Positions 1 to 41,700 of a stretch of 64,000 nucleotides of DNA are shown one piece after another (the stretch's first letter is position 1; each line of letters starts with the position of its first letter). Source of the stretch: Phyllosticta citribraziliensis (Eukaryota); assembly GCF_038025025.1 (NCBI RefSeq), contig NW_027117348.1, positions 868,001-932,000 on the forward strand, in the 5' to 3' direction. A program made the translations under genes and the position numbers. The notes below the pieces were generated by a model, which saw nothing but the letters and a program-made list of their open reading frames with translations, did not search any database and was not told where the DNA came from.

Positions 1-1074
1 AAACTAGGTTATTAATCTATATCTATAACTATATATTAGCTATTTCTAGGATAATTAGGTAGAAAGACTCCTAGTATTAGACTTTATATAAGTAATACTC
101 CTATATAAATCTATAGATATATCCCCCTATAAGTTAATCTTTAGCTACTAGCCTAGCTTCCTATTTAATTAGGAGAAATATACTATATATCTAGAGCCTA
201 TAAAGAAACTATCTTATATTACTATATAGAAGTTTACTAGATATATATAGGAAACTATATAGTAGGCTAAATAATAACTAGGTCTTACCTAGGAATAAAT
301 AGTATAAGCTATAAACTAATTCTAATAGGAACTAGACTTTAAGGAAGGTAATAAGGTATATATCTCTATATAGGGTATAAGTACTAATAGGCCTAGTACT
401 AAACTTAATATTTAGAATTAAGGACCCTACTATATCTATAAGAAAAAGGGATACTCTTATAAGCTAGAACTCCTAGTATATACTAGAGTTATAAACCTCT
501 TCTATATACACTACTTATAGAAGGCTTATTCCCCTTTACTAGGCTAGGTTTCTATTCTTAAACCTTTAATTATCTACTAGAACTAAGAAGAGTATAAAGT
601 TAACTTTATATATAATAGTAAGGTAGAATAAGGTACCCTAAAGTACTAAGTATAATAAAAAGAATATAATTAAGATAATATATAGTATAAGGCCTTAGAT
701 ATAGTTAGTATCTCTAATTAAATTAAGAAGTACTATACTAAATTTCCTAAGATACTAGGACTACTAAAGTACTTATAAGACTAGAAAGATATAATAGTAT
801 ATAAGCTAGATTATAAAGGTACTATAAAGAATAATAAGCCTACTCTCTAAGTAGCTAACTAAAACTAAACCCTCTAATACTACTAGAAAATATAGGATAC
901 CCTCTAGAAAAACCTATTATATACTAAGAAAACAGATTATTAAGGCTCCCCCTCCTATAAACCCTCTACCTTAGACTAATAGATAAGGGCCTTAGCCTAA
1001 AGCTAATTACCTAGACTATATAGTAGTAGAGATATACCTTAATAATCTATAAAAGTATTATTACTAAAACTATC

Positions 1075-2622
1075 TACTAGGGAACTATAAGGGGTAATAG
1101 GACTATATATAATCTAGGTATAGATATAGGTATAGGGGGGTACTATAGGAATAGGTAATAGTAATAATAATAAGGATAAAGAGGATATCTTAAGACTAGA
1201 AACCTATAGTAGTATAGTAGTAAAAGAACTAGAAATAGATAAAGAAGCTATATATACTAGATTAAATAGACTAGTATTACTACTATTAGATTTATTAGAT
1301 AAAGAGGATATATTAGATAAAAAAGAAGGGCTAGACTTTCTAGATAAGAAAGAAGGACTTAGTTTATTAGAAGGGATATATTTACTAGGTATAGGTAAGG
1401 ATAAAGAAGAATAGGCTATTAAGAGAATTATAGAAACTATATAACTAAAAACTCTTATAGGTATATATAGAATTATTACCTTCTATTCTAGAAGGGTAGT
1501 ATTACTAGATAAAGAGGTAATAAAAGTAGGACTAGTAGAGATAGTAGAAATAGTAGAAGTAGAATTAATAAATAGAATATCTAGTATATAGATAGATAAA
1601 GGTATATTATTAAAAGGATTAATAGGGCTAGTCTTAGTCTCCTTAGAAGAAGAAGTATTAGTATCTAGTATAGGCTTATCCTTTAAAAATAGACTACTAA
1701 GACTAGTTATAAAGTTATCTAGATAATTAGGGACCTTATCTAAGGGATTATACTAGCTATTATAAATATAGTTATCTATATTATATATACTATAAGAGAA
1801 AGTACTATTATCCTACTTATAATTACTATAGTTACTACTAAAGAAACTAGGAATCTAGTAATAACTAATAAATAGATAATAGATACTATTAGATAGCTTA
1901 GTATATATATAGTACTTATAATTAGTACTCTATAGAATACTAATAAATTAGATAGCTATAATAGAGACCTAAGAATAATAATAATATAGGTTATCTATTA
2001 AAATTAAAGGGATAGTAAAGATACTAGTATAGCTATAAGATAAGAATAAAAGCTCTTTATATATATTATAGACTATATTACTATTAAGAGACTATAATAC
2101 TATTAGTATAAGAGCTAGAGATTAAGGAAAGCTAGATTATTTACTCTACTTAAGATAATCTAAACCTTAGCTAAGTATAAGATATATATACTACCCTTAT
2201 TAAATCCTTAAGGCCTAGGTAAAGGTAGATCTAGAGGATCCCTATTAGAACCCTTAGAACTAGGCTCTTCCTTATCCCTCTCTTCTTATATAGGTAAAGG
2301 ATAATAATAATAATAATAAAGATAATAAGGTAAAGGTAAATAGTTAGAAGGACTAATAATAACACTAGTAGAATTATATTTATATAGATAATAGGAAGGA
2401 CTAATACTAGGACTAGAATACTTAGACTAATAGGTCTAAGGATAATAGTAAATAGTAGAAGAGATACTATTAGAGAGAGTAATACTATTATATAGTATAA
2501 TATATATAGATATAGTAATAGAATATATAGGAGTATATATAGGACTAATAGTACTAGGATAATAATTAGGAGTAGGTATTAATAGATATAAAGGTATAGA
2601 TTCTAAAGAGCTATTAAAGAAT
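1075..2622 (-). pseudogene. RIP-inactivated antisense spliced ORF in element E with a DUF3716-like Cys-rich domain
   Basis: Minus strand: an Arg/Ser/Pro-rich then acidic frame (2622-2145), a phase-0 intron 2144-2092 (GTAAAT...TACTAAT...TAG), then a frame whose 1980-1786 part de-RIPs to AIQFVG...CxxC...PFVGCRRIPGFFGGNCGNCKWDD...CS, followed by a Ser/Pro-rich tail. Both ends approximate. Confidence 0.7.
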
Positions 2623-3126: not shown

Positions 3127-3717
3127 TATTATAGATTAGCTAAAAACCTATAATTATATTAATTAAATACTACTTAGTATTAAGTACTAGGTATACCTAT
3201 ACTATAATTACTAGTTATAACTATAAGCTATATATACTAAAATTATCTAACTCTCTAAGAGCTATAGCTACTTAGATAATTTAACCCTAATACCTATAGA
3301 TATAATACTAATATAATAATAGAAATAAGAATAGAGCCTCCTATACCTATAGTAGAGACTTAACTAAGTAGTTAGTTTTAAGAAGTATATTACTACTAAT
3401 AAGCTAGTAAACTACTATATAATATAGGATTAAGATAAGGTCTTATTCTCTTATAGTATCTACCTTCCTTCTATTATAATTCCTAAGGTAAGTCTAGTAA
3501 TAGAATATAAAAGGACCTTATTATATAGATACTATAGATAGCTATATTTATTTTCTTATAATTAATACTCCTAAATAGACTTACTACTAATTTAACTTTT
3601 ACCTTATTTATATACCCTTCTTACTTAGCTTTATCTCCTATACTTATATACCTTAGTATTAGATAAATAGTTACTTAGAACTAGCCTACTAATTAGGTAA
3701 CCTATTAGATTATAATA
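3127..3717 (+). repeat. 3' LTR of element E (591 bp)
   Basis: Follows the PPT. Aligns end to end with the reverse complement of 4097-4683 (4-bp indel; differences mostly transitions). Confidence 0.9.
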
Positions 3718-3729
3718 CTATATAGAACT

Positions 3730-3882
3730 ACTAGGATAGCTATCCTTATCTCTTATAGTCTTAGACTTAAGAGGGATATTAAACTAAATAAATAAATAAA
3801 TAAATACTAGGATAGCTATTATTATCTCTTCTAGTCTTAGACTTAAGAGGGATATTAAACTAAATAAAAAATAAAAATAAAT
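3730..3882 (+). repeat. Two tandem ~76-bp units ending in (TAAA)n; possible LINE 3' ends
   Basis: ACTAGGATAGCTAT...GACTTAAGAGGGATATTAAACTAAATAAA occurs twice (3730-3805, 3806-3882). LINE origin is inferred only from the A-rich tail. Confidence 0.7.
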
Positions 3883-4096
3883 ACCTTTCTCTATAAGGGG
3901 AATAGCCTTAGCTAGGGCTATAGGCTACTAACTTAGATCTTAATAGGTCTATATAGTAAAGTAAGGTTATATAAAACCCCTAGTACTAATAAAACTCTAT
4001 AAATAAGATTTTATCTATTATCTAGTATGTTAAATATACTATTATTACTTAATTTAACCCCTTATAGTACTAACTTTTATACTAGTATAGGATAAC

Positions 4097-4683
4097 TATT
4101 ACAAGCTAATAGGTTACCTAATTAGTAGGCTAGTTCTAAGTAACTATTTATCTAATACTAAGGTATATAAGTATAGGAGATAAAGCTAAGTAAGAAGGGT
4201 ATATAAATAAGGTAAAAGTTAAATTAATAGTAAGTCTACTTAGGAGTATTAATTATAAGAAAATAAATATAGCTATCTATAGTATCTATATAATAAGGTC
4301 CTTTTATATTCTATTACTAGACTTACCTTAGGAATTATAGTAGAAGGAAGGTAGGTATTATAAGAGAATAGGACCTTATCTTAATCCTATATTATATAGT
4401 AGTTTACTAGCTTATTAGTAGTAATATACTTCTTAAAACTAACTACTTAGTTAAGTCCCTACTATAGGTATAGGAGGTTCTATTCTTATTTCTATTATTA
4501 TATTAGCATTATATATATAAGTACTAGGGTTAAATTATCTAAGTAGCTATAGCTCTTAGAGAGTCAGGTGACTTTAGTATTTATGGCTTATAGTTATAGC
4601 TAGTAGTTATAGTGTAGGTGCGCCTGGCGCTTAATACCAAGTAGCGTTTAATATAATCATGGGTTTTTAGCTAACCCGTGACA
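4097..4683 (-). mobile_element. Inverted E-family LTR (587 bp), probably solo
   Basis: Reverse complement starts TGTCACGGGTTAGCTAAAAACC and matches 3127-3717. No adjacent PPT. Flanks ATAAC and (T)ATAGC are only an imperfect TSD. Confidence 0.88.
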
Positions 4684-5649
4684 TATAGCTTATATATTAT
4701 ATATCTTATTAGGTTATAACTATATTAGGAGTATATATATATATATTGCCGGCCTTTCCTAGGTATTTTTTTAGTGGTTATAATTAGATATTTTAGGCCT
4801 AGCCCTTATAGGAAAATTACTAAACTAGTAATATAAGTAGAAATAAGTTAAAACTAAAGGACTATAGGTTTATAAAGGAAATAGTTAGGTTTTATAGGTA
4901 GGGGAGTAAGATATATAAAGATATTAATATATATATATCCCTACTATATAGTATAAACGAATTAACCCCTAAATTTCTTACTAAGACTAGTACTATTTAA
5001 AAGAGTATAGTTAGTATACCTAAGGCTCTAATTTTTAGCTCCTAAACTAAATATACTATTATATAGGAAGGGGTAGAAAGTTATAAGAAAAGGGGTATAA
5101 CTTTATACCCCCTATATCTCTATAAATCCTTATCTAATTAGGATAAAAAGTATACTAATTAAATGCTAATACTTAGTTCTATTATACCTAATACTTATAT
5201 TATTAAAAAATATTAGAAAATAAGGCTGAGAGATTAATTTTAAATTTTTATATTTCTCCTAGTGTTTAATAAATACTATAGCTAGGAGCTATACCTTACT
5301 TTAGAGCTATATCTAGATTTAACCTTAGATTATAAAATCTTAGTAAGACTAGGCTAGATTAGGATAATATAGATACTATTTTAATTATCTAGGTATAATA
5401 ATTCTAGTAGTACCCTTAGAATATTTTTATTCTACTATCTTCCCCCTAAAAAACCCCCTAAAAATAAAAGAATAATAAGAAACTACCTAAAACTATCTAA
5501 AACTACCTATTTTTACTAGTTCTCTAAGTAACTAGCTCCTATTAAGTAATAGTAGAGTTTATTTATAGCTTAATTTATATAAAATAATAATTAGTAATTT
5601 TATTTTAGTTATTTTTCTACTAGTCTATTTAATTTTTATAGAAAGAGTA

Positions 5650-6516: not shown

Positions 6517-9125
6517 TATTATATATCTACGCGCCTTTATTTAGTACCTAGCGCGCTCGGGGTAGCGGCCCCGGCCTAGGTAGGGGCCCTAGCCTACATA
6601 GTTAGCCCCTAGCCCCGGCTAGGGTAGTTAGACTAATTAATATATATTTAGCTTACGTGCCTATCTATAGGACAAGTTATAAAGTAGTAGCTAAAAGTTA
6701 ATAATATCCTTATTATAAAACCTAGTTATCCTCCTATATATAAAATACTAGTTTTTCTATTAATTACTATTATTCTAATACTTCCTAGGGCTAATCTTCT
6801 AGTATCTAATATAGAATATTAGTAATATAAATCATAGGGCCTATATCCCTATAGCTAGTAGGGTATTTAGTTATATAGTTAATATTAGTATTATACTATT
6901 ATTAATTATTAAGGAGCTTATTAAGTAGGTTATTCTATACCTTAGAGTTAATATTATTATTAGTAGGTAGGATATAGATATACTAGATATTAATATTATA
7001 GTTATCTTAGAAAGTCTAGGGTAGTAGTCTATATATAACTATAGAAGCCACCTATACTACTATGCTATTACTAATATGAAGATCCCCTTCTTTATATTAT
7101 GCGCTGATTTTATTATAAAGCTCCTAGCTATTATAGATAGTAGTTTTAATACCCTCCTTACTACTATATATAAGTTCTCTAAAGTAATCCTACTTACCCT
7201 AGGGCTAGAAACCTAGACTACTAGGTAATAGGTATTAGTCTAGTTTAAGGACCTATATAGTTATAGCTAGGGCTTACCTAGTATATTAATCTTAGACTAA
7301 GATATAAAATAGCCATCTAAATTTATTATATAGGTTTTTATAATACTAAAGGTATAATTCTATAGTACTATAGTATATTACCTATAGGCTAATAGGTAGT
7401 TAGAATATACTAACTAGATAGTAGAATATATAATATATTATTTTATATTTACTAATCCTAATTAGGCTTAGGTAGATGTACTTCCCTATATATAGGGGAT
7501 AATAAATATATCCTATAATATATCTACTAGGTATATACTATATAAGATTCTATATAGTTTAACCTATAGACTACTATATTTAGTAATCTTAAGAGTATAA
7601 GGGAGGTTAATATAAATATACTATATACCTAGTACTAGGTAGAAGCCTAGGAAGCCTTAGCTTTTACTACTATTACCTAGAAAGAGTACTAAAACTCCTA
7701 CTATAAGCTAGTTTAATTTAAGGTTGGAGATAAGGCATTCTTATACTTATATTTTAGGTATAAGGTTTATAGTAACCTACTAAAAAAGCTATAACCCCTA
7801 AGAATAGGGCCTTACTAAGTAAAAGTAACTATAGGCCCCCTAGTATATAAGCTTAACCTAGAATTAATAAAAGTCTACCCTATTATATTAGTTAGCTAAC
7901 TTAAATATAATTCTAATAATAGCCCTTATAGTTACTAAGTGCTACTAGATCCTATACCTATTATAAATATTAATAACCTAGCCCTAGAGTATAAAATTAA
8001 AACCTTACTAGACTATTAATAAAACTCCTTTATAAAGTAGCTCTAGTACTTAGTTAAATAGAGGGGCTATAGCCCTTAATACTAAGTCTAGTATAATATT
8101 AATAACCTTAAGAATACTATAGATCTTATTAAGGAGTATAATAAAAGGCTTAGGACTAGTACCACCCTATATTTAGTAAGAAGATAACTATTATATATAC
8201 TAAAGCTACTAGTATATACTATAGTTATATACCCTACTAAAGACTATACCCTAGCCAATAGTAAAGATACTACTAAGTTATAGGGTAGCTATTAAACCTG
8301 TTTCTAGGCTAGATACTCTAGCCCTTTAGTAGTTATCCCTCCTATATAAGGGCCGTTAGCCTATACTATTAGTAAATATAGTATAGTATAGTTAGTATTA
8401 GTATTCCTATCCTTTCTTATTTTCTATTATTATTTTATATTGCTATTTATAAAGGAATAGTCGCTTTACTTAATAAGGGGAATAATAGTTTCCTTTATTT
8501 AATAGGGTAAATAGTGTAGATAAATAATAAAGAATAATAGAGTTATAAGGCAGTTTCTTTATTTTATTCCCTTATTTAGAGAGGTGTAGGGAGTAAATAA
8601 GTAATATAGAGGGATAGATAGGTTTTCCTAAGCTAGTTATTTTAATTTAGGACTATTTAAAGCTTAGTACCTACTAACCCTAGAACTACTATTTTAGTAT
8701 ATAGCTAATCTTTACTATACTATTAACCTACCCTTATAACTAGTATACTATCTAACTTATATTATATACTATCCTTTATACTATACCCCTAAAAAAGAAG
8801 GGTGCCCTAAGTATATTAGCTAGTACCTTAATAGCTAAGGGTACTACTACCTAGTACTTTACCTACTTAACTAAAGCTAATAAGCCTAACCTACTTAATA
8901 TAGTACCTTACTATATTATAAAGCTAAAGAAAGGTACTAAAAGTAGTAGTATAGGCTTACCCCTAGTTATACTAACTAAACCTAAGGCTATTATACTAAA
9001 GACTATAGTTATACCCCTAGAAACCCTAGGAAGTATATCTTTACTTTAGTACCTAGTAGAAGTACTAACTACTACTAAGTAGAGTACACCTATAAGTAGC
9101 TTACCTACTATTACTAAGTAATCCT
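6517..9125 (+). mobile_element. Element D': rearranged, internally deleted D-family copy (5' LTR 6517-6681, inverted 3' segment ~6698-7077, integrase/chromodomain region ~7078-9125)
   Basis: 165-bp LTR matches 32718-32882 and has the same following AAGTAGTAGCTAAAAG. ~6698-7077 is the reverse complement of ~44248-44628. ~7078-9125 aligns with ~40311-42340, including YLVK(W)RGY at ~8047-8070. Confidence 0.88.
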
Positions 9126-12100
9126 AGTATGGCACTGCTAGTCGGCACTATTTTTATAGCTCTAGAAGGTTATTTTTAGTATTATTATTCCTATTCCCAA
9201 CGGCAATCTTAGCTCTAATATAAGTAGGAGATTAGGCTGGCATAATAATAGGATAATAGATAGCTCTAGAATCTTAGAAATTTATAGTTCTATACAGTTT
9301 AGTAGTAACTATAATAGCTAATAAAAGTATAGGTAAACTTAGCATCTTTAGTAGTAATAGGAGGTCTTATATTATTAGTATTTTTAGTAGTAGATTAGCT
9401 AGTTATATACCCCCTTTTATAGCTGCTTATAGAGAGAGACTACTTATATAAAGGAAGTCTTTTATACCTAGTTAAACTATTATCTACTAAATACTTAGTT
9501 ATTTATTTATTTATACTTATTATTTATACCTAAGTCTTATACTACTTAGATAATGAAATAATAGCTAGTTAGTAGCTTATTTTAGTTAGTTTAGTAGTTA
9601 TTTTAATCCTATCCTATAGAGCCTACTTATTTACTACTAGTTACTATCTCTTATACCTCTTCTAGTACTAGTATTTTAGCTAGCTAAGTAAGTATATTAG
9701 TAAGTAGCTAATCCTACCTATATTTTATAGTATAGCTTCTATAGATTAGGAGCTTCTTATTACCTAATTATATAGATATAGGATATTAGTAGAAATTAGG
9801 TAAGTAAAAGGCTATAGGATATTACTAACTAGTACTATTAATTTTACTCTCCCCTACCTAGCCTATTATTATATATTTACTATACTAGTTACTATTACTA
9901 TACTTACTATTATTTACTTATTTATCTAGAATATTACTTTATAGATGCTATATAAGCTATAAGATTAATATTTATAATTATATAGTAGGTTAGTATATAA
10001 TTTAAAGAATAATAATACTATACTATCTAATTTTAATTAGCTCTATTTTTATTAAGTATAATATTATTCTAGGTATCTCTACCTATAAGGTATAGGAGAC
10101 TAGCCTAGGTAATTAGTTCTCTAGTTTTTCTATAATTATTTTATAGATATTAGACTATTAAGGTCTAATAAGTTTCTAGGACTATTCTATTATACTATAA
10201 GGTTAGTAGTTTATATAATAAGTTATAAAAGTAGATTTAGATATAATTATATAATAAATTTAATAACTAAGCTATAAGAACTATAAGTACTTCTAGTAGC
10301 TTAGGTAGAAATAGATAAGGAGGAAGAGGTATATTAGGAGAAGGATAAAGAAGAAGAATAGGGTCTTATAGTAGTAGTTACTCTCTAAGAGACTAATAGT
10401 AGGGGCCTATAATTATATATAGAGGACTATTAATAATAGTCCTATTACTAGGAACTAGTTTATAGGCTCCCTTATAAGGTATAGGGCTAGCTCTAGTACT
10501 ATTTAGGCTATTCTTAGGATTAGGAGTACCTCCTATAATTATACTACTATTAGGGATAGATTATAATAAAATAATATAGCTAAGCTAAGCTAATTAGCTA
10601 ATACTAGATACTATAGAAATAACTCTCCCCTAGACTAGTAGAGAGTTATTATTACTAATAGAAGCTAACTAATACTATATAAGAATAGCTTCCCTACTTT
10701 AGATAATCCTAATAAGCTAGATACTAGTACTAAAGTAAAGACTATAGTTTAAGGGGGATAATATATTATTATTCCTTAAGATATATAAGTACTTTTATAC
10801 TATAGCTAGGAGTCTCTTAGAAGAGTTTATACTAAAACTAGTCTAGTACTATAAAACCCTAATTAGCCTAGAAATTTACTATATTATAGAGTTTAAGACT
10901 AGAGATTAGGAAAGTCTAAAGGTTTAGATACTAGTATACTATAAGAATTAGGATATTAGTATAATTAGTAGGAACTAAAGCTATATTAAGAACTTAGCTA
11001 AGAGGTATAAGGACCTTTATTACTCTTCTAAAGTAGATAAGTTCTTTAGGCTTTACTAGATACTTAGTAATAAGGTAGTAGAAGAAGGATATATTAATAA
11101 AAGCCTATAAGAGATATAGTTCCTTAATACCCTATATATAGATATATAAACTAGGGTCTTATATAAGGGGTACTTATTCTATAGGGCTAGGAATATTTAG
11201 TATCTCTAGTTATATATTAAGGCCTAGCTAGAATATAAATAGTATATAGCCTTATATACTATAGACTTACTAGAGGTTATAAATATAGTTATATACTATA
11301 TTAAGAGATTAGACTATATTATAGACCCTATACTAGTAGGAAGAGGATACCTTTCTAGGTCCCCTCTACTACTTATAGTATTATCCTTAGATAGCTCTTC
11401 CTCTATAACTATAGCTTTAAATAGATAATTAACCTCTAAGACTAGGACCCCTTTAGTAAAGAGTAATAATACTATAGTTAAGGACCTAGTAGATAAGCTA
11501 GTTAAGATATATATTAAATTAATCTAGGAAGCTACTAGCTATATCTATAAATAGCTTATAGATAGTAAGAAGTATAGATATATTATAAATAATAGGGACC
11601 TATATATAAGGGTTATCTAATTATTATTTCCTTATAATAGCTCTATTAGAATAGGCTAGCTAATAGGGTAGTATATACTATTACTAAGATAATATACTCT
11701 ATAGGTAGGTCCTAATCTTCTATTAATAAGGCTACTACTACCTAGGATAGCTCCTATAGGCTAATTATAATATAATCCTAACTCCTATAACTAGGCTAGA
11801 CCTCCTAGTTTAAATATAAACTAGAGTATAGAGATAGGAGAATACTAGAGTTATAATAAGATAGGCTATATAGTTAGGAGTTATTCTATTCTATTACTAT
11901 TTATATATACTAGTCTTATATCTATTAGTTAAAATAGGTGTATCTAAGACGTTAATAGCTAGCTAATATTAACTTATAAGAGGAATAAATAGCTAGATAT
12001 TAAGAAGTACTTATAATATTAGGGATAGATAAATAATAATAATTTACTAAAAGGACTACTAGTACTAGAATATTAAATAACTCCCTACTAGACTAAGGGA

Positions 12101-15100: not shown

Positions 15101-16743
15101 ATACTAGATAACTAGTAAGATAAGTCTAACCTTTTTATAAATAATATTATAGAAGGCTAATAAAGGAGCTAGTATAATAATATAGAAAGTATAGTTATAG
15201 GGGTTAGGTAATTTATACTTAAGTATATCTAGGATATTAATAATATATTATAGAACCTAGAACTAGCTAAACTTATAATCTTAAGAGAGAAGTCCTTCTT
15301 TAGTATACTAGAAGTAGAAGTTATTAGGTTTAGATATAGAGAGTTTAGATAATTACCTACTAATTTAAAAGTAGGTAAGATTAATTATTAGGATACTTCC
15401 TAGGATCTTAAATTACTATGAGGCTTCCTAGGAGTAACTACCTATTTCTACTATTAGGTTAAGGAGTACTTATATAAAGTAGTACTACTATATACTCTAA
15501 TATAGAAAAATATACTATTTATATAGGAAATAAAGTATAATAAGGTTATAGCTAAAATTAAGAAAGCTATTATAATAGTACCTACTCTAGTATCTATTAT
15601 ATATAGAGAGGAGTCTACTAGGGATATTATTATAGCTATAGATAGTAGTAGTATAGGATAGAGAGTAGTTTTAATATAAGAGAAGGATAGTACTAGGTAT
15701 CTAGTATAGTATAAGAGTAGTATCTAGTCTAGGATAAAATCCTTTTATAACTCTAGAAAGCTAGAATACTAAGTACTAGTATATATAATTATTAGGTTTA
15801 AACTATAGTTATTTAGTTAGTACTTCTTAGTTAAAATAGACTATTATATCCTATAGGATTACCTAAATAGTAGGACTAAATCTATAATAGATAGAGTCCT
15901 TAAGTAGTAGCTTAGCTAGCTATCTATATAGGATTTTAAGATACTATATATTACTAGGTTAAAGAATAGGGTAGTAGATATACTATTAAAAAGGCTAAAC
16001 TTTAAAGAGTTAAGTAAGGAAGACCTATAGAAATAAGTAAAGAAGATAGAAGATAAAATTAATAAGTTATTATTATCTCTATAGCTAAGTATATATATAG
16101 TTAGTTCTATAGATCTCCTACTAATTATCCTCTAGGCTAGGGGGGAGTTAATATTAGCTAATTAAATACCTATACTAGGCCCCTCTAGTCTATTAGGAGA
16201 GGTTATTCTATATAGAGTACTATATAAAGAGTACTCCTAAGAATTAGAGGATTTAGCTAAATTTATTACCTATAGCCTACTCCTACCTAAAGTTAAGTAA
16301 TTAGAAGCCTAGAAATAGTAATAGAAGGCCTATAGGTACTAGGTCTATAACTAGTACCTATTTTAGTAATTATTAAAGAATATACTACTAAAATAAGTAG
16401 TAGATAACCCTACTATCTAAAAATAGATAGTATAATAACTATATTATAAGTTTAGCTATTATACTAAAGAAGGAATATTTAGGAAAGTCTTAGATTAGTA
16501 CTTTTAGGAAGGCCTATAGACTAAGTATAAATAAGAATACTAAAATTACTAGACCTACTTATTTTATAACTTATTATATAATAAGGAGGCCCTCTACCTA
16601 TCTCTTAAGATACTAATTCTAGGAGATAAGTAGTATATAGATATTATCTATATACTTAGAGGCTTCTATATTAATATATAAGAAGTAGTCTCTAGCTAGG
16701 TTAAAGGATAAATCTTATATTTATCTAAAGCTACCCTAATAAC

Positions 16744-17136
16744 TGTCACGACTTATAGAGTCCTCGTTTTATAGGTTAGGGCTAAAGGTAAACTGCTAGA
16801 GAATGTATATATATCTTAATTAAATATAATAAGTTAAAAGAATAAAATATAAAAGATACTTACTTCCTATCTATTTCCTAGCCTTCTCTTTATACCTTTC
16901 TAGCTTTCTGACCTTTATATAAGGGTTAATAGTTATTATTAGGTTATTCCTAAAGGTGAGGTATTAATAGGTAGCTATACTATATCTACCTAAGGCTATA
17001 GTAGCTAGTAGTAGCCTAAGGTGTAGCTAGTATTTAGCCTAAGGCTATAGTAGCTGGTACCTTATAACTATATAATACTAGGTTTATCTATACTAGCCTT
17101 AGTACTTATATAGGTGTATAAACGCCTATTATAATA
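16744..17136 (-). repeat. 3' LTR of element A (393 bp)
   Basis: Direct repeat of 24419-24803 with an 8-bp insertion; adjacent to the PPT. Confidence 0.95.
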
Positions 17137-17822
17137 TACCCCCCCTAAAGAGAAGCTAAAATTATAGGAATTAGTAGCTATAGGTGCTTATATAGGTATA
17201 GACTTATAATATATAGTAGTAGTATTTAGTAATTTAGGCATTCTATATAGTTATAAAGTATAATTATTAGTCTAGCTTTATTACTATACTATCTTTCTCT
17301 ATTACTACCTTCTATTACTGTATAATCTATAGAAGGTTACTATCTATCTTAGCTATATCTAGAGCTCTCTACTAAAGTATATTATTATCCTATCTAAATT
17401 AGCTATAATCTAGTAAACTAATAGTTATATAAAGGCTTAAAGGAGCTATACTCTATAGAGAGTAAAGAGGAAGGCCCTATACTAGCAGGTTAGTAGTAGC
17501 TAGTTACTTAGTAGCCTATTACTTATTAGCCTATTACTTATTAAGATTTATTACTATTATATAATACTTATTATACTATTCCATTATTATATAGTATTAC
17601 TTATAACCTATTATAGTTACTACTTACTTAAAGAGCTATCCTAGCCTATAGTATCTATTAAGACCATTATATAGAGTAGCCTTATAGTAAGTAGGCCTCT
17701 TATCTTTAAGATTATTACTAATTATTATCTAGGTTCTAGAGGACCACCCTATACCTAGGTAGCTTTATATATTCAGGTTTTACTACTTTATCATCTAATT
17801 TTACTAACTAATATAATTATAG

Positions 17823-18848
17823 AGGAGAATATTTACACTACTTACATAAATATATAGTCAGGCTAGGCTTTACTTATTTAGCCAGGACTAGTATCAGGCC
17901 TATTACTTTACTAGTACTATCTAGCAGCATTATTAGTTATTATATAAGGTTTATTATTATTAGCTATACAGCCTACTTCTAACTAGCCTGCTTTACCTAC
18001 TCTTATACTATATTATTATCACTTCACTATTATATAGCCTATCTTAGAGGAAGAAGATAAGGAGCCTATTTATATATACTATTATTATAATCCTATAGCT
18101 TATCAGGTCCTAGCAGTTAAGTACTTAGTACCTATTAGTTTATATAATAGTAATAATAGTAAGATTTATATTATAGTATTACTAGTTGGTTTTAATAAAG
18201 CACCTATTAAGTAGGACTTTAAATAGATACTTTATATTCCTTATAAGAATATAGAGAGTATTATATAAGTAAGTTTACTTTACTAATACTAGGATTTCTT
18301 AACTGACTATATAGGCTTACCTAGGTAGCTATAAAGTATAAGAGCGTACTAAATGTATTCTGGCCTTAGGAGATAGTATACCTTACTTATATATTATAAT
18401 TTCTACTTATAACTTTAACTACTTATTAATTAAAACTTATACTAGCTTATGCGATACTTTTCTTATCTAGTATACTAGAATTAATAATCCTATTAGCTAT
18501 ACTAAGTATTATAATAATACTAATACTTATATATTTATTAGTTATTATTACCTGCCTAGTTTCTTATAGGGCTACTATACTAACTACCTTTAAGGTATAG
18601 GTAATCTTAACTATACTATTAGTAACTTAAAAGGTATAAAGCTGCCTGCCTAGTATAAAAGGTATAGTAATAAGATTTATATAGGAGAGTTTCTAGGCTT
18701 ATATAACTAAGCTATACCTAATAATTAGACTAATTATACCTTAGCTAAGTAGGATAGCTTACCTAATAAGCTAGAGGAGCTAGAGGAGACTATCTTATAT
18801 AACTATAGTTATATTAAGAAGAAGGGAAAGGGAAAGGGAAAGAAGTAA
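17823..18848 (+). pseudogene. RIP-inactivated antisense spliced ORF in element A with a DUF3716-like Cys-rich domain
   Basis: Phase-0 intron 18269-18314 (GTAAGT...ACTGAC...TAG) joins two low-stop frames. 18450-18620 de-RIPs to DAFLIQRTG...CTKC...FVGCRRLPGFLQGCCANC...C. The frame ends KKKGKGKGKK-TAA at 18848. A second intron at 17777-17822 is possible, so the 5' end is unresolved. Confidence 0.72.
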
Positions 18849-21800
18849 AGTAAAGGGATAGCTAGGAATAGTCCTAAGTAGTAAAAAGGAGAGACTAGAG
18901 AGTAGAAGTTAAAGTTAATAGTATTTATATAAGGGTAGATAGTAAACTAATTAGTCTACTTTCTATATCTTTATAATATTTACTTTAGGCCTAAGTAACT
19001 TATTTTATTATTACTTTCTATTTCTATCTATAGTTCTTCTTATAGGAAGGTAGTCTTCCATTTTTCTAGGTTTTTTAGTAGTCCTACTATAGCTAGGTAA
19101 GAAGAGTAAAACTCTTTAATTTTCTATAGTATACTACTAAAAGAACTTATATTATACTACTAATTATCCTAGTTATATCTAGTCTATTAGACTTAGTATT
19201 AGAGCTTTCTATATAAGACTTAGCTAGCTTAAATATAGTCTACTTCCTACTTAGGCTTATCTTAAATAACCTCTAGTCCTAGTTTAGTATACTCTTATCC
19301 TAGAAGTTTCTCTATTAAGGCTTTATAGAGTCTATTAGCGTGAAAAAGGTTAACTATCTTTATATATAAGGGAAGATCTAGGATATAGGAGGATCCTTCT
19401 ATCTCTATAATCTTAAAAGGTCTAATATTAGGGAAGTCTAATTTAAGGGTTAGCTAATTAGTAGACCACCCTATTTTCTTAATATAAATATAATCTCTAA
19501 TTATAAAGTCTAGTATATAATAGTACTTATTAGCTTATTAGTATATATACTCCTAGGATTTAAGAATAAGATTCTTTATAAATTTAAAAGCTTCTTATCT
19601 TCTTTTTTATAGTATTTATACTACTATATAAGGTCTATTAAGGGTAGAAGGTCTAACTAGTTATTCTAGAAATAATTAATAAAAGGTCTTAGCCTTTATA
19701 TAAGGTACTAATTAATAATTTCTATAATACTATTAGTTTAAGAGTAATATAAGGAGTTAAAATACTATTTAATACTAGTAAGCTTATATAGTTTATTTAT
19801 AAATATAGAGATAAATTATAGGCCTTAGTTAGAAAGGATAGATTTAGGGTTTCTATAGATATAGTAGATATATTTATAAAAGAGTCTAGAGACTCCTTCT
19901 ATATTAATCTTCTTTATATAAGGTAAACTAAAGGTTTATTAACTTAACTAGTCTACTATAATAAGGATTATATTATAACCTTTCTAGTCCTTAGGTATCT
20001 CTTTAAAATCTATAGCTAAGTATTACTATAGTTAAGTAGGAATCTCTAGAGGTTATAAAAGGCCTAGGTCTTTATTATAGAACTCCTTTATTTAGTAGTA
20101 GATATAGTATCCCTATCTATAAATATTAATTATATAATTTATAGCTAGCTAGTAGTAATATTATTTAAAGAGTTTATATATCTTTATAATACTAGGATAG
20201 ATAGTAATATAGGTAGTATATAAGATATTAAGTATTCTTATATAGAGGTTATTATAATCTAGTATAAAGAGGGTACTATATTATAATAAAAGACTATCCT
20301 TTAGTTCCTAACTATTTCTTTATTTAAGGTCTTCTAATAGAGCTTTTTATCTCTAGGGTTCTAATTTAGAATCCTCTCTATTTATATAGAGGAGTTTATC
20401 TAAAAATAATACTAGAGGAGGAAGGTCTTATTCTAGAATAGAAAGGGGAATAATAGTTTCTAGAGGGATAAGGTATATTTCTTATATAGCTTTTACTTTT
20501 TCTTTTTAAGTCTTTAGGTCTTCTTATTTTTAAATAAGGTAATTAGTAATAATATTTTCCTTTCCTAGCTAATAGGAGAATTATATATAGAATTCTATAA
20601 AGAACTTAGACTATCTAGCTTATTATTAATTAAGTTATTATTTAGTAGAGTAGTACTCTAATACTTAGTAGTCTATAATTATAAGGAAGGGTTTTTTAAG
20701 GCTAATAAGTATTAGTCTCTATTCTTCTAGTCTATTCTTAATAGCTAGTAGTTCTTTATCTAAGATACTATAATAAAGTTCTATATTAGCTATTACCTTA
20801 GAGTAGAAAGCTACTAGTTTCTAATTATATAAAGGTTATTAGAGCTATATTAAAATACTAGTAGTAACTCTATTACTTATATTAGTCTCTATATAAGTAT
20901 CTAGAGTAGGGTTATAATTTACTAGAAGTATATTACTATATATTAGCTTCTTAAGTTATTAAATTATCTCTTCTTCTAGTAGTCCTAGTTATTACTATTT
21001 TACCTTAGAGTATAGTTTCTCTAATAGCCTACTAATTTATCTATAGTTAGGAAGAAATTATTAGTAGAAATTATAGAAACCTAGGAAGGATTAAAGAGCC
21101 TTAAGAGTCTAAGGTATTAGCTAGTTTTATATAGGTTCTACTTTATCTAGGTCTATTTAAATACCTTCTATAGATATAATATATCTAAGAAACTTTATAT
21201 AAGTAACTAAAAACTTACTCTTCTTAAGATCTACTTAGAGTCTAGCTTTTTATAGTCTTACTAGTACTTTTCTTACTTATAGTTTATATTCTATAGGGTC
21301 TTTAGAGATAATAAGTATATTATCTATAAAAGCTATAATAAAGTTATCTAAATACTTAAAGAGAACTTAGTTAACAAATTATTAAAAGGCTATAGGTCTA
21401 TTACTTAATCTAAAGGGAAGGATATAGTATTTAAATAAACTATATCTTATATAGAAAGTAGTCTTATCTTTAGAATCCTTAGTAAGATAAATATAGTAGA
21501 AAGCTTATTAAATATCTAGCTTTATATAAATCTTACCCTTTTTAATATACTAGAGTAACTTAGAAATAAGAGGAAGAGGGTATAAATCCTTAGTAGTTTA
21601 TTTATTAAGCTATTAGTAATTTATATAAAACCTCTATCTACTACTAGGCTTTTTTACTACTAGAATAGAAGAAGTAAAGATAATAAAGCTTTTAATAATA
21701 AAGCCCTTCTATATATTCTCTATAATATACTCTTTTATAGCTCTTAGCTACTTAAGAGATATTCTATAAAGAGGACTAGGAGGAAGCTCTAGTAGACCCT

Positions 21801-24418: not shown

Positions 24419-24803
24419 TATTATAACTTATAGAATTCTTATTTTATAGGTTAGGGCTAAAGGTAAACTACTAGAGAATATCTTAATTAAATATAATAAG
24501 TTAAAAGAATAAAATATAAAAGATACTTACTTCCTATCTATTTTCTAGCCTTCTCTTTATACCTTTCTAGCTTTCTAACCTTTATATAAGGGTTAATAGT
24601 TATTATTAGGTTATTCCTAAAGGTGAGGTATTAATAGGTAGCTATACTATATCTATCTAAGGCTATAGTGGCTAGTAGTAGCCTAAGGTATAGCTAGTAT
24701 TTAGCCTAAGGCTATAGTGGCTGGTGCCTTATAACTGTGTAATACTGGGTTTATCTATACTAGCCTTAGTGCTTGTATAGGCGCGTAAACGCCTATCGTG
24801 ACA
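24419..24803 (-). repeat. 5' LTR of element A (385 bp)
   Basis: Direct repeat of 16744-17136; outer end TCGTGACA intact, followed by the TSD. Confidence 0.95.
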
Positions 24804-26354
24804 ATAACTAATTTCCTATATAAAGAGCTAATTTATTACTATAGTATATTTTAATATCTTATTATAGATAGAGGTAGTAAGAATCTAAGCTATATTATAT
24901 ATCTAAAATTAATAGTTTAGTATACTACCTAGAGTTAAATAGTATAGTTAAAAGAGGATATAGATAAATTAATAATTTACTAGCTAAGCTATCTATTAGA
25001 GGTACTAAATCCTAGAGACTATATTTTTATAGTATTCTATAGGCTAATAGGACTATAATATATAGAATAACTAGAATAACTCCTATAGAGGTCTTATATA
25101 GGAGGGACTATATACTCTCTATTAAAATAGAGATACCTATATAGTAGCTTATACTATAATAGGATATAAAGAGTATAGGAGACCTATTTACCTTATAAGT
25201 AAAGTAAATTAACTTATATAATAAGAAGCTCTAAGAGATTATATTATAAGTATATTATTTATAGGAGTAGAATAAAGAATAGTTTAATAGCTACTACCTA
25301 TAAGTTAGAGAAGTAATAGATAAGGGATTTAATAAGGGAGATTAGGTACTACTCTACTATACTAAGCTTAAGAATAAGTATAATATAAAGCTTTACTTCT
25401 TCTAGAAGGGGCTATTTAAAATCTATAAGGCTAATAGAGAAATTAGTACTTATTAGCTTAAAGAACTTAATAGAGAGAAAGTAGTAAATCTAATTATAAG
25501 AGATAGACTTAAGAAGTTTATTAATAGTAATAAGGACCTAGTTAAAATAATCTACTAATAGGTTAACCTACTATTAAGAACTAGTAGGAGTTAGTAGGAT
25601 TAATTATTATACCTATTATACCTATTAAATAGACCTTAGCCTAAAACTAGGATTATATACCCTAAGACCCTAAAGGGTATATCTATTCTATAGTATTATA
25701 AGTAAGTATTAGACTAGTATAAGGCTATTAATAATAGCTAGGATAGTAAAGATAAAAACCTAGATAAATTAAGTAAGTAGGATATCTTAATCTTTAGAGT
25801 TTTAGTATTTTAAGGTAAAGTTTACATATTTAAGGGAGATAGCAGTATTAAGAAAGTTTAAATTAATAAGGATATAGTAAGTTTAATATTAATAGGCTAA
25901 TAATAAATCTTACCTATTATAGTTTAATACTTTACTAATAACTCCCCCCTAGGACTAGGGGATAGTTTTTAGGCTAATTAGAAGCTATAAAATAACTCTA
26001 TACTATATATAAGTTTATATATCCTTAAAAATCTTTAGGACCCTAATAACTAAACTATTAGGCCCTAAGCTAAAAATATTCCTTTATTATAACTATAAGT
26101 AGGAATGGAGTTTTAGTATTATTATTTAGTATACTAAGCTAATAAGGATATAATATATAACTATAAGCTAGCCCTTATATTAGTTTAGTACTACTCCTTA
26201 TTAAGTATCTTACTTCTAAGTAGTTATTTCTCTTACTTATAGTATAATATCTTAGAATTTTCCTAATTAGGATTAGTATAGGTAGTACTTTTACTAAAGA
26301 ACTACTACCTAACCCTTATAACTACCACCCTTATAATAATTCTCCCCTACTATC

Positions 26355-32717: not shown

Positions 32718-35700
32718 TATTACGCGTCTGCGCGTCTTTACTTAGCGCCTAGCGCGTTTAGGGCAGTAGCCCTAGTATAGGTAGGGGCCCTAGCCTATAT
32801 AGTTAGCCCCTAGCCCTAGCTAGGGTAGTTAGTCTAATTAATATATATTTAGCTTATATACCTATCTATAGGATGAGTTATAAAGTAGTAGCTAAAAGTA
32901 CTATAACCCTACTAATTAATACTATAGTATAAGGTATATATATAAGAGTACCTACTAGAATATTATAGTATACTAGTACTATAAAGTTACTTCTACTACC
33001 CTACCTAAAGGCCCTAGTTTATAATGGTAATATAGATATATAAGGTCCCTTACTAAGACCTTCTCTTTACTAATAACTAAAAGACTAGTAGCCTACTATA
33101 GGATTAGGATAATATATTATCCTAAACTATAAAATACCCTTCTAATCTTTTACCTAGGGTATTAACTATAAACTACTCTAAAACTACTAGGATTCCTCCT
33201 TACTACTATAAATCCTACTATATCTAACTATCTTTATAAGGATAATATAATTAGTAACTAGGATATACTATTAGCCTAGGAGCTTAAAGCCTTTATAGAC
33301 TATAAGAAGAACTAAGCCTATAAGAATAAGCTACTTACTCTAGAGATCCTATAATAAGTAGAATAGATAGATTACTAAGCTCTTTAACCCCCTAACTACT
33401 TAGGGCCTATTAATATAATAGAATATTACTAGATAGTATTACCTAGATTATCTATTTTAATAGGATAATAGTAGTAATTATAAGAAAGGTATAGTTATTT
33501 ATACTATTAAGTAGGTAAGTAAGGTATATAATAGGCTATATAAGCTATTACTAGTATCCTATATATAAGTTAGTATAAGTACCCTAGTTACTCTAGGTAT
33601 AATAACTAGTAATATAAATACCCTAATAATACTAAGAACTAGCCTATACCTTTAAACCCTAGTAGCCCCCTTAATAGCTAGGTATAGTTCCTATTTTAGT
33701 TAAGGTTTAGTATATTTACTATTTAGCTAAGCTATAAAGAGCTAGCTAAATTAGACTCCTATACCTATATAAGTCCTAGGATTACTAGATTTATAAGTAC
33801 CCTAGTTAGGATAAGGATCCTTATATAACTAGCTTAGCCTATATAAATAATAGTCCCTAGCTATTATAGATAACCTAGTAAGTACTACTATACTAGAAAC
33901 TAAAAGCTTTAGTTTCTCTATATAAGTACTCCTAGACTATCTAATAACCCCTAGATTAGGCCCTTAATAAATAAATAAGGCCCTAGGAATAGTAGGTATC
34001 TCTAGAGTAGGAAGGGGAAGTATCTTAGTAATATCTTAAAGGTTACTACCTATAAGACCTTTAGTAACTAACCTAGTAACCTTAGGCTAGTTATTAGGGT
34101 AGTTAGATAATTATCCCTTAGGTAGTACCTATCTAATTAGTTAAGCTACCCTAACTATATACTTAGCTAACCTACTATCCTTATTAGCCTATATACCTAT
34201 TACTACTCTTTAAGGATACCCCTTAACTCTTATACTTAACTCTTCTATCTATAAATCTTATATAGAGTATACCTTATAACTTAATATTCTAGCTCTATTT
34301 AATAATTTAACTAAGACTACTCTACTCTAAATACTATAAGGATATAGTTATAGTTCCCCTAGTTTTATAAAACTACTCCTATACTTTTAATTAAGAGTCT
34401 AGCCCTTAAGTTAACTTAGCTAAACCTTAGTTAATACTTATAGATAGGAGAGTATATATTTATATACTAGTTTAATTATAGCCTTATAGGCCCCTATTAA
34501 TAAAGATAAAGGATATTATACCTCTCTAATAGAGATAGTTAAACTAAACCCCTAGTATAGTAGTAGTAAGGATATAGAGGAGATATTACCCTATAATAGA
34601 GAGAACCTATATATTAATTATAATATTAAGTAGTATAAAAACCCTTATAATAATAGTCTTAATAATTATTAAGGAGATAAAGGTAATAAGACCTAATAAA
34701 GGGTCCCTTTAAATCTTTTAAGTATTTAGAGATCTAGAATAATAGTACCCCTACTAAAATTATATACCTAAGCTTTTAATACCTATAGTACTAGTATAGA
34801 GTAAGTATAGGCCCCCTTTTCTACTAGGGCTACTATACTAATAGTCTCTATAGTAGGAATCTTCCTACCTCTACTAGCTTAGACTATAGGAATCTTTATA
34901 TTATTAGTATAGATATAAGGTATACCTACTATAGGTTTTAATATAAATAATATAGTTAGCTCTAATTTACTAGGTTTTAGAACTAGTACTACTAGTAGCC
35001 CTAGTATTTAAAGATTTATAGCTAGGCTAGGCCCTACTAGCTAAAGAATAGATACTTAAGGTAAGAAAAGATAGTACTATAATACTATAGATAAAATAGA
35101 GGAGATCCTATAAGGCCTAGTAGAGTATACTACTTTAATAAGCTAGATTACTAGACTCTAGGGGCTTATTCTTAACTAGTAATATATATAAATAGAAAGC
35201 TTTAAGAGTATAAATAATAGTATTAATACCCTCTATAGCTTATTAAGTAAGTACCTAGCTAGTCTTAAATCTACTAGTAATACTATAAATAATACCTATT
35301 ACCCCTAAGATAATATAGGTTACTTTTACCTAGATATAAAGGTATAGTACTACTAGGAATACTATACCTATTCTAGTTTTCCTCCTCCTAAAACCTATAA
35401 TTATAGAGGACTACTAAACCCTATATAACTACTACTACTATCTATTATACTTCTAGTTCTATTTCCCTAATAGTATAATATATAAATAGTCTCTACTACT
35501 AGTAGTAAACTAATAAATTACTTAATATATAGATAATAACTATAACTACTCTTATACTTTTCTATACTTCTACCCTAATAATATTAGCTACTTTAACCCT
35601 AATCTAGGTAAAGATAAGGTTAGCTAGGGTAGTAGTACTATAAAATATAGGAAAGTAGTTTACTATACTATAGAATAATTTATTAATAGTACTTAGATAG

Positions 35701-38700: not shown

Positions 38701-41700
38701 ACCTATCTAGGGTACCTATTAATTATACTCCTAAGCTAATAGGTATTAGGGCTAGGAATTACTATCTCTAATACTAAGATCTAGGCTCTTAAGGATATAG
38801 TTTTCCCCTATATACTATAAGAACTTAAGATATTTATTAGACTAATAGGATAGCTATAAGATAATTACCCCTATTATACCTAGCTAGCTAAGCCCCTAGA
38901 GGTAATTAAGATATTATATCTATAAAAAGCCCTAGAAGGTAAGTAAGTAAGAAGATACTTTATAGTAGCTAAGCTAATATTACTAGAGCTATTACTAATA
39001 GTAGTATTTAATATAATATATAATATACTTTATAAGATATATTAGAGGTTTTACTATAATCTATTATAACTATTATATATTAATATAGATACTTTAAAGA
39101 AGTTAGGATTTAGAGTTATTATATACTATATTACTAGAGACCCTAAGCTAGAAATAGAAGACTAGTAACTAAAGATTATAGTAGCTAATACTAATAAGGA
39201 GAGACTACCCCTATAGCTAAAATAGGTAAAGGACTTTTTATATTAATTAATTAAGCTAATTATATTCCTCTTATAATAACTATCTAATATAGAAATATAG
39301 TACTAGATTACTAAACTTAAGATAACTAGGGTATACTAGGTAGTTAAGAAACTATATACTTTAGTATAGTTAGTAGCCTATATAATACTTTTTATAGACT
39401 ATACTACTATAATAGTACTAGTATAGTAAAAGATATTTACTACTTCTTAATCTAATAAGTAATTAAATCTATACCTAATATAGGTATTATAGTATCTATT
39501 ATAATTTCTATTAACTATAAAATACTACCCTAAATAGAATTATATTATACTAGATACCCTAAGTTAGTTACCTTTAAAAGCTAGCTATAATAATAGAGAT
39601 ATTATAGATAAGGTAGAATTCCTAGATAATATAGATCCTATATAGTTTATAGTAATATATAACCCTAATCCTACTAGGGCTATAAGCTATTTCTATATTA
39701 TATTAGTAGAGATAACTAATACTTTTAAGAATAAGGTATAGGAAGGCTATATAATAGATCTATAATAGGCTTATATATTATAAGTACTTAAATAGGCTAT
39801 AGCCCTAAAGAGGTAGTTTAAAAGCTAGCCTACTAGGGTAATCTAAGATAGAATTAAGGTAGATATACCTATATTAACTAGGGTAGATATACTAGCCTTA
39901 ACTAGGGTAAATATATCTAGGGGGAGTAACTTACTAGTAGAGGCCCCTTAAGAAGAAGTAAGTAATAGGGAATAGCTATAAAGTATTAAGATATACCCTA
40001 ATAAGGATAATCCTATCCTAAAATTATAGTTTATCCTATATTATAGGCTTATCTACTTTATTAACTATACTAAGAAAAATAGGGAATACCTATATATCCC
40101 TCTAGCCTATAAGAAGGAGATCTTCTAATTTATATATAATACCTATAGCTACTAAGGCCCTAATTAAGCTATAGACTTTATTTAGGCCTTATTTTATATA
40201 TACTAGTTATATAAGTAGCTATACTTATATATAGAAAATTACCCTAACTATAAGTATATAACTACTAAATAGTACTACCCTTATAGTAGCTTAATACTAA
40301 TTACTATAGTTAAGATCCCCTTCTTTATATTATATACTAATTTTATTATAAAGCTCCTAGCTATTATAGATAGTAGTTTTAATAGCCTCCTTACTATTAT
40401 ATATAAGTTTTCTAAAGTAATCCTACTTACCCTAGGACTAGAAACCTAGACTACTAGAAAATAGGCCTTAATTTAGTTTAGGGACCTATATAGTTATAGC
40501 TAGGGCCTATCTAGTATATTAATCTCTAACTAGGATATAAAATAGCTATCTAAATTTATTATATAAGTTTTTATAATACTAAAGGTATAATTCTATAGTA
40601 CTATAGTATATTACCTATAGGCTAATAGATAGTTAGAATATACTAACTAGACTATAAAATATATAATATATTATTTTATATTTACTAATCCTAATTATAT
40701 ATAGATAGATATACTTCCCTATATATAAGGGATAATAAATATATCCTATAATATATCTACTAGGTATATACTATATAAGATTCTATATAGCTTTAATCTA
40801 TAAACTACTATATTTAGTAATCTTAAGAGTATAAGGGATATTAATACTAAGGTACTATATACCTAGTACTAGATAGAAGTCTAGGAAGCCCTAGTTTTTA
40901 CTACTATTACCTAGAAGGAGTACTATAACTCCTACTTAAGCTAGTCTAGTTTAAGGTTAGAGATAAGGTACTCTTATACCTATATTTTAGGTATAAGATT
41001 TATAGTAACCTATTAAAAAAGCTATAACTACTAAGAATAGGGCCTTATTAAGTAAAGAGAGTTATAGGCCCCTTAGTATATAAGCTTAACCTCCTAGAGG
41101 TAATAAAAATCTACCCTATTATATTAGTTAGCTAATTTAAATATAATCCTAATAATAACCCTTATAATTACTAAGTACTACTAGACTCTATACCTATAGT
41201 AAATATTAATAACCTAGCCTTAGAGTATAAAATTAAAACCTTACTAGACTACTAATATAACCCCTTTATAAAGTAGCTCTAGTACTTAGTTAAATAGAGG
41301 GGCTATAGCCCTTAGTACTAAGTCTAGTATAATATTAATAACCTTAAGAATACTATAGACCTTATTAAAGAGTATAATAAAAGACTTAAGACTAGTACCA
41401 CCCTATACTCTATAAGAAGATAACTACTATATATACTAAAACTACTAATATATACTATAGCTATATACCCTACTAATAACTATATCCTAGCTAATAGTAG
41501 AGATACTATTAAGCTATAGAGTAGCTATTAAACCTATTTCTAGGCTAGGTACTCTAGCCCTTTAGTAGTAATCCCCCCTATATAAGGGCCCTTAGCCTAT
41601 AGTATTTATAAATATAGTATAGTTAATATTAGTATTCCTATTCTTCCTTATTTCCTATTATTATTTTATATTACTATTTATATAGGAATTACCCCTTTAT

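Follow-up and report, generated by a model that had tools for sequence, protein, structure and literature searches.

The closest described counterpart of the locus analyzed here, a candidate antisense gene of a Ty3/gypsy chromovirus (element A) lying in a 64,000-nt stretch of the Phyllosticta citribraziliensis genome (contig NW_027117348.1, positions 868,001 to 932,000; the whole stretch is referred to as the window), is brtn, an additional antisense gene of the Boty-like elements of Botrytis cinerea published in 2011 (PMC7264820, PMC8365987, PMC4227169). In the passages of these papers that describe it, brtn is placed between pol and the 3' long terminal repeat (LTR) of an element that carries gag, reverse transcriptase (RT), integrase (IN) and CHROMO domains, and a passage of PMC5987419 mentions a Monilinia transcript matching a truncated Pol plus BRTN. 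Compared by description only, brtn and the relic in element A have in common that each is an extra antisense gene located behind pol in a fungal chromodomain element. brtn occurs in a family of copies and is transcribed. The relic of A is found in copies inactivated by repeat-induced point mutation (RIP) in another fungus, and the passages citing brtn report no Cys-rich or DUF3716-type domain. Literature searches for antisense additional genes in fungal chromovirus/gypsy elements returned no case beyond brtn.

Plant elements, including maize Grande (gene23), rice RIRE2, Silene Retand and Phaseolus PvRetro13, have likewise been reported to carry antisense open reading frames (ORFs) between pol and the 3' LTR (PMC7264820, PMC11963269). 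According to the section of PMC7264820 dealing with these elements, gene23 of Grande has its own promoter and a nuclear protein whose function is thought to be regulatory, the products of the plant antisense ORFs resemble no known protein, and the elements show an unusually long 3' internal region, which, together with the position and orientation of the ORF, they share with A. Retand, unlike A, belongs to a non-chromovirus lineage (PMC11963269), and the relevant passages of both papers mention neither a Cys-rich domain nor introns in the plant ORFs, unlike what is proposed for the relic of A. The latter is a further example of an antisense gene behind pol, a principle that was already known. 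HBZ of human T-cell leukaemia virus type 1 (HTLV-1) is a spliced antisense gene encoding a nuclear regulator, with its promoter in the 3' LTR. HBZ and antisense-intron retrotransposition reporters follow the same principle as that proposed for A, i.e. an intron in antisense orientation survives reverse transcription, although the proteins and the hosts of HBZ and of the relic of A are unrelated; antisense transcription in HTLV is likewise treated in part of PMC7264820. Of the features that distinguish elements with antisense ORFs, A shows an extended spacer from pol to the 3' LTR (~1.8 kb, vs. 60-204 bp in 19 of 21 relatives), whereas coding capacity on the opposite strand is seen in A on relic statistics only (stop codons, periodicity, and one Cys and one Arg codon restored in other copies).

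Between the chromodomain and the polypurine tract (PPT) of element A, which lies on the minus strand, the plus strand holds what are probably the remains, inactivated by RIP, of an antisense accessory gene carried by the element itself, whose product would have been Cys-rich and basic at its end (Table 1). The frame in phase with position 17823 reads ...FLI*YTRINNPISYTKYYNNTNTYIFISYYYLPSFL*GYYTNYL*G... and terminates in KKKGKGKGKK*, with the stop codon at 18846-18848. This antisense reading and its basic end, resembling a nuclear localisation signal (NLS), had been pointed out in a first-pass annotation of the window, and the present translations reproduce the earlier text letter for letter. 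The same annotation had proposed that a 46-nt GTAAGT/ACTGAC/TAG stretch at 18269-18314 links two frames. Both the motif (GTAAGT...TACTAAT...ACTGAC...TAG) and the phase shift were confirmed, its excision joining phase 17825 to phase 17823, and an intron at this place is plausible, although putative. The antisense reading ends ~100-190 bp from the end of pol, so that the two are arranged tail to tail.

Regarding the setting, GC content is 24-30% over the first 48 kb of the window and 54-61% over its last 14 kb, the AT-rich 48 kb being the signature of RIP in a filamentous ascomycete; at the isochore edge (48000-50000), where GC rises from ~25% to 58% within 2-4 kb, lies the border of the RIPped compartment. 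Element A is a complete, RIP-mutated Ty3/gypsy chromovirus of 8,060 bp; it lies on the minus strand and is flanked by a target duplication of 5 bp, its completeness being indicated by the LTR pair, the ATAAC on both flanks and the PPT. The two LTRs are 92.6% identical across 379 nt, and their terminal inverted repeats (TGTCACGA..TCGTGACA) are intact in the right copy, while the left one has RIPped strings of the TATTATAA type. Pol was recognized by Pfam in one minus-strand frame (RVT_1, 4e-14; RT_RNaseH, 3e-9), and an 801-residue reading from RT to integrase matched 179 gypsy polyproteins (top 3e-118) bearing names from Xylaria, Penicillium, Talaromyces and Aspergillus; RT and RNase H families are listed for every one of them, and rve for most. 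Neither rve nor Chromo gave a direct Pfam match on the RIPped copy of A; the label chromovirus is justified because 19300-19058 aligns to residues 1261-1341 of the database protein P0014 (E 4e-6), and thereby onto its Pfam Chromo domain (1278-1326). The comparison with P0014 places the end of pol near 18,950-19,040, ~1.8 kb from the PPT.

In order to obtain a chance level for stop codons, 94,934 windows of 178 codons were taken in six frames from the AT-rich 48 kb (mean of 22 stops). The exon-2 frame contains 8 stops in 177 codons, a value equalled or undercut in 0.95% of those windows, and the other five frames over the same span hold 12, 38, 15, 25 and 27. Stop counts are a weak guide in RIPped DNA, because the true pol frame holds 19 stops per 178-codon window, close to the mean. 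RIP consists of transitions only and leaves the purine/pyrimidine state of each base unchanged, while coding DNA has a universal purine excess of codon position 1 over position 3 (R1-R3), a periodicity that should thus outlast RIP. R1-R3 was 0.24 in the exon-2 frame (top 1.4% of windows), compared with 0.15-0.21 in the three exons of the intact gene of a related element (L013, see below) and 0.05-0.06 in the LTR and spacer of A. This statistic sets the phase and not the strand, which is indicated instead by the stop counts, by the motif and by variants in other copies.

The arrangement recurs in a second gypsy element, Z, which is truncated by the start of the window. Positions 2 to ~850 align with the end of pol in intact relatives, the part from 332 to 769 being 35% identical to the pol C-terminus of A, and the antisense frame of Z runs from ~2250 to 1040, ending ~170-190 bp from the end of pol. 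This frame has 13 stops in 330 codons vs. a mean of 41 (lowest 0.1% of windows), nowhere else in the RIPped 48 kb are windows as open, and its R1-R3 is 0.19. It is Ser-rich (20% Ser) over ~400 codons. The minus strand of Z at 1878-1771 reads YLFISYY*IPSFFSSNYSNYK*, compared with YIFISYYYLPSFL*GYYTNYL* in A, and a RIP-tolerant regular expression (regex) for the motif, applied to six frames of the 48 kb, matched at A (18498, plus strand) and Z (1920/1914, minus strand) only. Inheritance together with the element is favoured, since A and Z share motif, strand and layout despite an identity of 35% between their pol C-termini.

Other copies of A were looked for in public sequencing runs, the best of which shared 0.14 of sampled words with the window; contigs from four runs were placed at a likeness of at least 80%, and none of the runs listed as sharing words with the window was an RNA run. 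Contigs of three of the four runs (X1, X2 and X8) fall on the ORF part of A, and those of X1 and X2 cover 28 of the 30 bins of 17131-19600. Position 18574 is G in every covering contig (7, 1 and 9 contigs of the three runs), changing the codon at 18573-18575, the first Tyr of G-Y-Y-T-N-Y, from TAC to TGC (Cys). One X8 contig extending past 18259 continues with GTCGCGCGA, GTAAGT and TACTAAT; the corresponding sequence of the window is ATTATATAA and then GTAAGT, and the seven differences are all of RIP type. At 18260-18268 this less RIPped copy has GTC GCG CGA vs. ATT ATA TAA in the window and, in phase 17825, reads Val-Ala-Arg in place of Ile-Ile-stop, with the donor and the branch-like string kept.

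Further differences between copies bear on whether the antisense unit might act as RNA, with a promoter near the 3' LTR, a transcript that is complementary to the genomic RNA at its 3' end and feeds control by double-stranded or small interfering RNA, and an ORF that is incidental. An indel pair (-1/+1) at 18605/18609 gives AAT CTT AAC vs. AAC TTA GAC, i.e. Asn-Leu-Asn vs. Asn-Leu-Asp, and A>T at 18371, the single exon-2 transversion among the differences listed, is synonymous. These synonymous-looking differences, two cases only, fit protein constraint, and a non-coding RNA would not be expected to show coding-type periodicity, to avoid stops or to conserve a Cys pattern. The idea of an RNA unit has been raised for the plant antisense units in a passage of PMC7264820, small RNAs of B. 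cinerea map to an internal retrotransposon region according to part of PMC8365987, and, with an ORF ending 100-190 bp before pol, a longer transcript of A would overlap pol. Altogether, such an RNA role appears very improbable.

Several findings weigh against a gene, or against parts of its proposed structure. The first-pass annotation had described two low-stop frames, which holds for exon 2; exon 1 has weaker coding statistics (10 stops in 148 codons; R1-R3 of 0.07). The derivation of Tyr from Cys by RIP, likewise claimed there, would fit the pattern and is directly supported, through the TGC of other copies, at 1 of ~10 proposed Cys codons only. The Tyr codons at 18546-18548 and 18576-18578 are outside the best-supported differences listed, beyond which there are 147 more, and are probably TAY in other copies too. 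No contig spans from the ORF to pol, the simple repeat at 18811-18855 having been skipped in contig placement. GTAAGT occurs 29 times per strand in the 48 kb, the plus strand of which holds 14 intron-like patterns. Residue shuffles gave 0.135 motif matches on average vs. the two places in the real sequence, an optimistic figure, as the regex was partly loosened after Z had been seen. As a plain alignment, the similarity between the cores of A and Z is marginal (tblastn, 41.7% identity over 36 aa, E 0.043); alignment in purine/pyrimidine space scored 25 vs. 23.2 ± 2.0, with 68 of 300 shuffles reaching 25, and the distance from core to pol end is ~330-540 nt in A vs. ~900-1,050 nt in Z.

Database searches were also negative. 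Pfam, applied to stop-masked translations of the RIPped A in three plus and three minus frames, returned no family at E ≤ 10 beyond RT and RNase H of pol, and none at E ≤ 1 for the stop-masked translations of Z; a word-seeded protein search with exon 2 left none of 33 candidates at E ≤ 10. The silence of Pfam on the RIPped reading is to be expected, because every proposed Cys would read Tyr, which also makes this test unfair to DUF3716. A full HMMER scan of 1.84 billion representatives gave a single match, P0004, a tandem-repeat protein of 1,063 aa with 10 weak stretches, which was rejected as an artefact.

Taken at their strongest, these observations would mean that no gene lies here: chance in extremely RIPped, AT-rich DNA of low complexity, or the shadow of a feature on the sense strand, would account for the frame being open, for the Tyr pattern and for the motif resembling an intron. 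Besides the frequency of GTAAGT and of intron-like strings and the lack of database matches, this explanation is in line with a Tyr content of 11% among all six-frame residues, with the complementary minus-strand frame having just 15 stops and, by symmetry, the same R1-R3, and with blastn matches of ~76% over 80-90 nt that also occur between unrelated RIPped stretches. It is nevertheless improbable, given that two independent statistics (stops and periodicity) each rank the exon-2 frame in the top 1-1.4%, that the antisense frame of Z is the most open of the 48 kb, that the motif is confined to two architecturally equivalent sites, and that other copies give TGC and an Arg codon vs. Tyr and a stop in the window.

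Intact relatives were sought with an alignment of 15 close polyproteins, which led to 79 metagenome loci, 37 of which, with a match to the pol C-terminus and downstream sequence, were examined (21 with an LTR pair, 11 without a detectable pair and 5 without one flank). The earlier statement that standard chromoviruses encode only gag and pol agrees with 19 of the 21 LTR-paired relatives, in which the pol match ends so close to the 3' LTR that no comparable region exists, a further point against an antisense gene; the novelty that this statement implies is weakened, as an antisense gene behind a fungal pol, brtn, had already been published. The remaining two (L065, with a weak pair, and L074) have ~2.1 kb between pol and the 3' LTR. 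In L074, the part from 7570 to 9650 contains tandemly duplicated antisense ORF pieces, with the same stretch of ~60 residues occurring twice; these pieces matched no Pfam family and show no likeness to the relic of A. In five loci, pol is followed on the sense strand by an extension or ORF in which repeats of the motif W-x-D-C-x-D-x-x-C-x-x-H...EK precede a coiled-coil-like stretch, and Pfam scans of two of these ORFs gave no relevant family. A strict Cys-motif regex matched none of the 39 loci with at least 600 nt of downstream sequence on the antisense strand behind pol, two Cys regexes had no match in six frames of all 79 loci (766,293 bases), and Pfam found no relevant family in 18 downstream ORFs of 9 loci. 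A scan of IMG/VR yielded 3 loci, all distant.

One of the metagenome loci, L013 (contig Ga0207664_10008324), is an intact element of the same pol clade as A and shows that spliced antisense genes with a Cys-rich product can occur in this clade. Its contig is circularly permuted (gag zinc knuckle, pol, 2 kb, 5' part of gag), the 5' gag part matching the gag of 21 other loci, and the resulting order is gag-pol, antisense gene, LTR and gag, with the gene tail to tail with pol, as in A. The four-exon gene, with a product of 221 residues, has an exon with the pattern C-C-x2-C-x10-C-x9-C-x2-C-x6-C and ends in a basic, bipartite NLS-like tail, KRPAGYSEESRAEKRPR (KRP..x..KRPR). It had no match in Pfam or the Protein Data Bank (PDB), nor a database relative of 59-189 aa. 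In Atlas it was placed among unnamed Ascomycota clusters (score 0.89), and at rank 13, with a score of 0.78 that is below the evidence level of the tool, next to a cluster with PF12511 in 28% of its members; this single tool-derived hint of DUF3716 is no more than a lead, and it relates to L013 rather than to A. AlphaFold applied to the 58-aa Cys exon without an alignment gave an unusable model (mean predicted local distance difference test, pLDDT, of 59.5). No similarity between the L013 gene and the relic of A was detectable by tblastn or by alignment of RIP-invariant codon classes, which again counts against the proposed gene of A, and the introns of the two are placed differently with respect to the Cys domain. 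Judged by sequence, L013 is an analogue of the relic and may not be its homologue; it is a cleaner object than the relic and a good experimental exemplar.

The diversity behind pol in this clade, with sense ORFs in five loci, antisense repeats in L074 and another kind of antisense gene in L013, would also be compatible with a captured or nested passenger, i.e. either part of a host gene picked up by transduction or a segment of a different mobile element with a Cys-rich gene, which would have landed behind pol in an ancestor of A and does no service to the retrotransposon. The 19 LTR-paired relatives without room for such a gene point the same way, as do the differences between A and Z in core-to-pol distance and tail length, and one candidate source would be found among class II elements, e.g. 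REP9 of Zymoseptoria tritici, since DUF3716 genes do travel on a DNA transposon (reported in part of PMC8232023). A passenger origin is nonetheless unlikely. Motif, strand and tail-to-tail layout are common to A and Z although their pol C-termini are only 35% identical, the segment is covered by many contigs of other copies, and blastn and tblastn self-searches (17001-19300; 17131-19100) found no further copy in the window but the Z core, terminal repeats or a duplication around the segment not having been searched as such.

Whether the Cys-rich domain of the relic belongs to DUF3716 (PF12511), as suggested in the earlier note, was weighed separately. The spacing CxxC-~9-F-x2-C-~9-G-x-C-x-N-C-8-C, taken to be that of DUF3716, fits the relic if each Tyr stands for Cys, and membership falls somewhat short of an even chance. 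According to a passage of PMC8232023, REP9 carries two DUF3716 genes (REP9-1 and REP9-2), and part of PMC10776026 identifies one DUF3716 protein as orthologous to an N. crassa protein that binds telomeric sequence, which would be in keeping with binding of DNA in the nucleus. The passages of these two papers dealing with DUF3716 do not tie it to LTR retrotransposons.

The favoured explanation is that of an accessory gene of the retrotransposon, which would be housed in the extended stretch separating pol from the 3' LTR and transcribed, under a promoter of its own, in the direction opposite to gag-pol. Since this gene would be antisense to the genomic RNA, in which the intron is no splice substrate, the intron would be copied into each new insertion. 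The product would have ~200-330 residues, with a presumably zinc-binding domain of six to ten cysteines (CxxC ... C ... G-C-x-x-N-C ... C) and a lysine-rich C-terminus acting as an NLS. Such a domain may have bound zinc and nucleic acid or chromatin, and the protein may have entered the nucleus and regulated the transcription, integration or silencing of the element itself; in this copy of A the gene is dead. A more specific proposal is that, in a lineage of ascomycete chromoviruses, a nuclear zinc-finger protein of DUF3716 type is encoded by an inherited antisense gene with an intron (present in A and Z, with L013 as an analogous case) and directs integration or protects the element against silencing; this proposal is tentative and rather doubtful. 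Antisense additional genes of LTR retrotransposons are documented but functionally blank, and a recognizable domain (zinc-binding, possibly DUF3716) combined with a nuclear tail would offer a first testable hypothesis for their role. If true, the DUF3716 proposal would give this domain a first functional context, tied to retrotransposons besides the class II REP9, and would suggest that host DUF3716 genes, including the one for binding of telomeric sequence, have been exchanged with mobile elements. In terms of approach, coding frames can be read in DNA saturated with RIP by means of transition-proof statistics (purine/pyrimidine codon periodicity, Tyr-for-Cys motifs), and public metagenomes hold intact exemplars, such as L013, that are usable in experiments.

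Table 1. Positions of the features of elements A and Z (numbering of the window) and of related metagenome loci (numbering of each locus).
Feature	Position	Strand	Basis or remark
Target-site duplication ATAAC, left copy	16739-16743	.	matches 24804-24808
3' LTR of element A, 393 bp	16744-17136	-	RIPped ends in this copy
PPT AGGGGGGG	17139-17146	-	two bases upstream of the 3' LTR
Putative exon 1 relic	17825-18268	+	phase 17825; start not definable; single long open stretch ~18038-18211
Putative 46-nt intron	18269-18314	+	GTAAGT..TACTAAT..ACTGAC..TAG
Exon 2 relic including stop codon, 177 codons	18315-18848	+	stop count, periodicity
Tyr-for-Cys core YTKY-x11-Y-x9-YYTNY-x8-Y	18498-18614	+	within exon 2 relic
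Basic tail KKKGKGKGKK	18816-18845	+	translation
Chromodomain of element A pol	19103-19249	-	alignment to P0014
RT and RNase H of element A pol	20593-21657	-	Pfam
5' LTR of element A	24419-24803	-	pairs with 16744-17136
Target-site duplication ATAAC, right copy	24804-24808	.	matches 16739-16743
C-terminal pol of element Z, truncated by window start	2-850	+	similarity to pol ends
Antisense ORF relic of element Z	1040-2250	-	same Tyr-for-Cys core at 1771-1920
Four-exon antisense gene of L013	4506-5319	-	ATG 5319, stop near 4508
Introns of L013 (51, 52 and 46 nt)	5285-5235, 5058-5007, 4757-4712	-	GTAAGC/GTAAGT donors, CTGAC/CTAAC branch sites, CAG acceptors
Sense ORF after pol	L040:3348-4143, L047:3387-4196, L057:5608-6784, L058:4071-4898, L065:6442-7252	+	repeated motifs

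Other repeats were detected in the RIPped part of the window. The segment 47101-47204 is ~90% identical to the end of the LTR of element A and is probably a solo or truncated LTR, while 47313-47432 matches 4961-5091 in reverse. An inverted duplication of 582 bp (3136-3717 and 4097-4674, 93.5% identity) has an 89-bp direct repeat (3720-3807 and 3796-3884) between its arms. Another repeat family is represented by 6517-8818 and 40300-42036, as well as by 32718-32899 and 44648-44829, with copies that are 82-93% identical.

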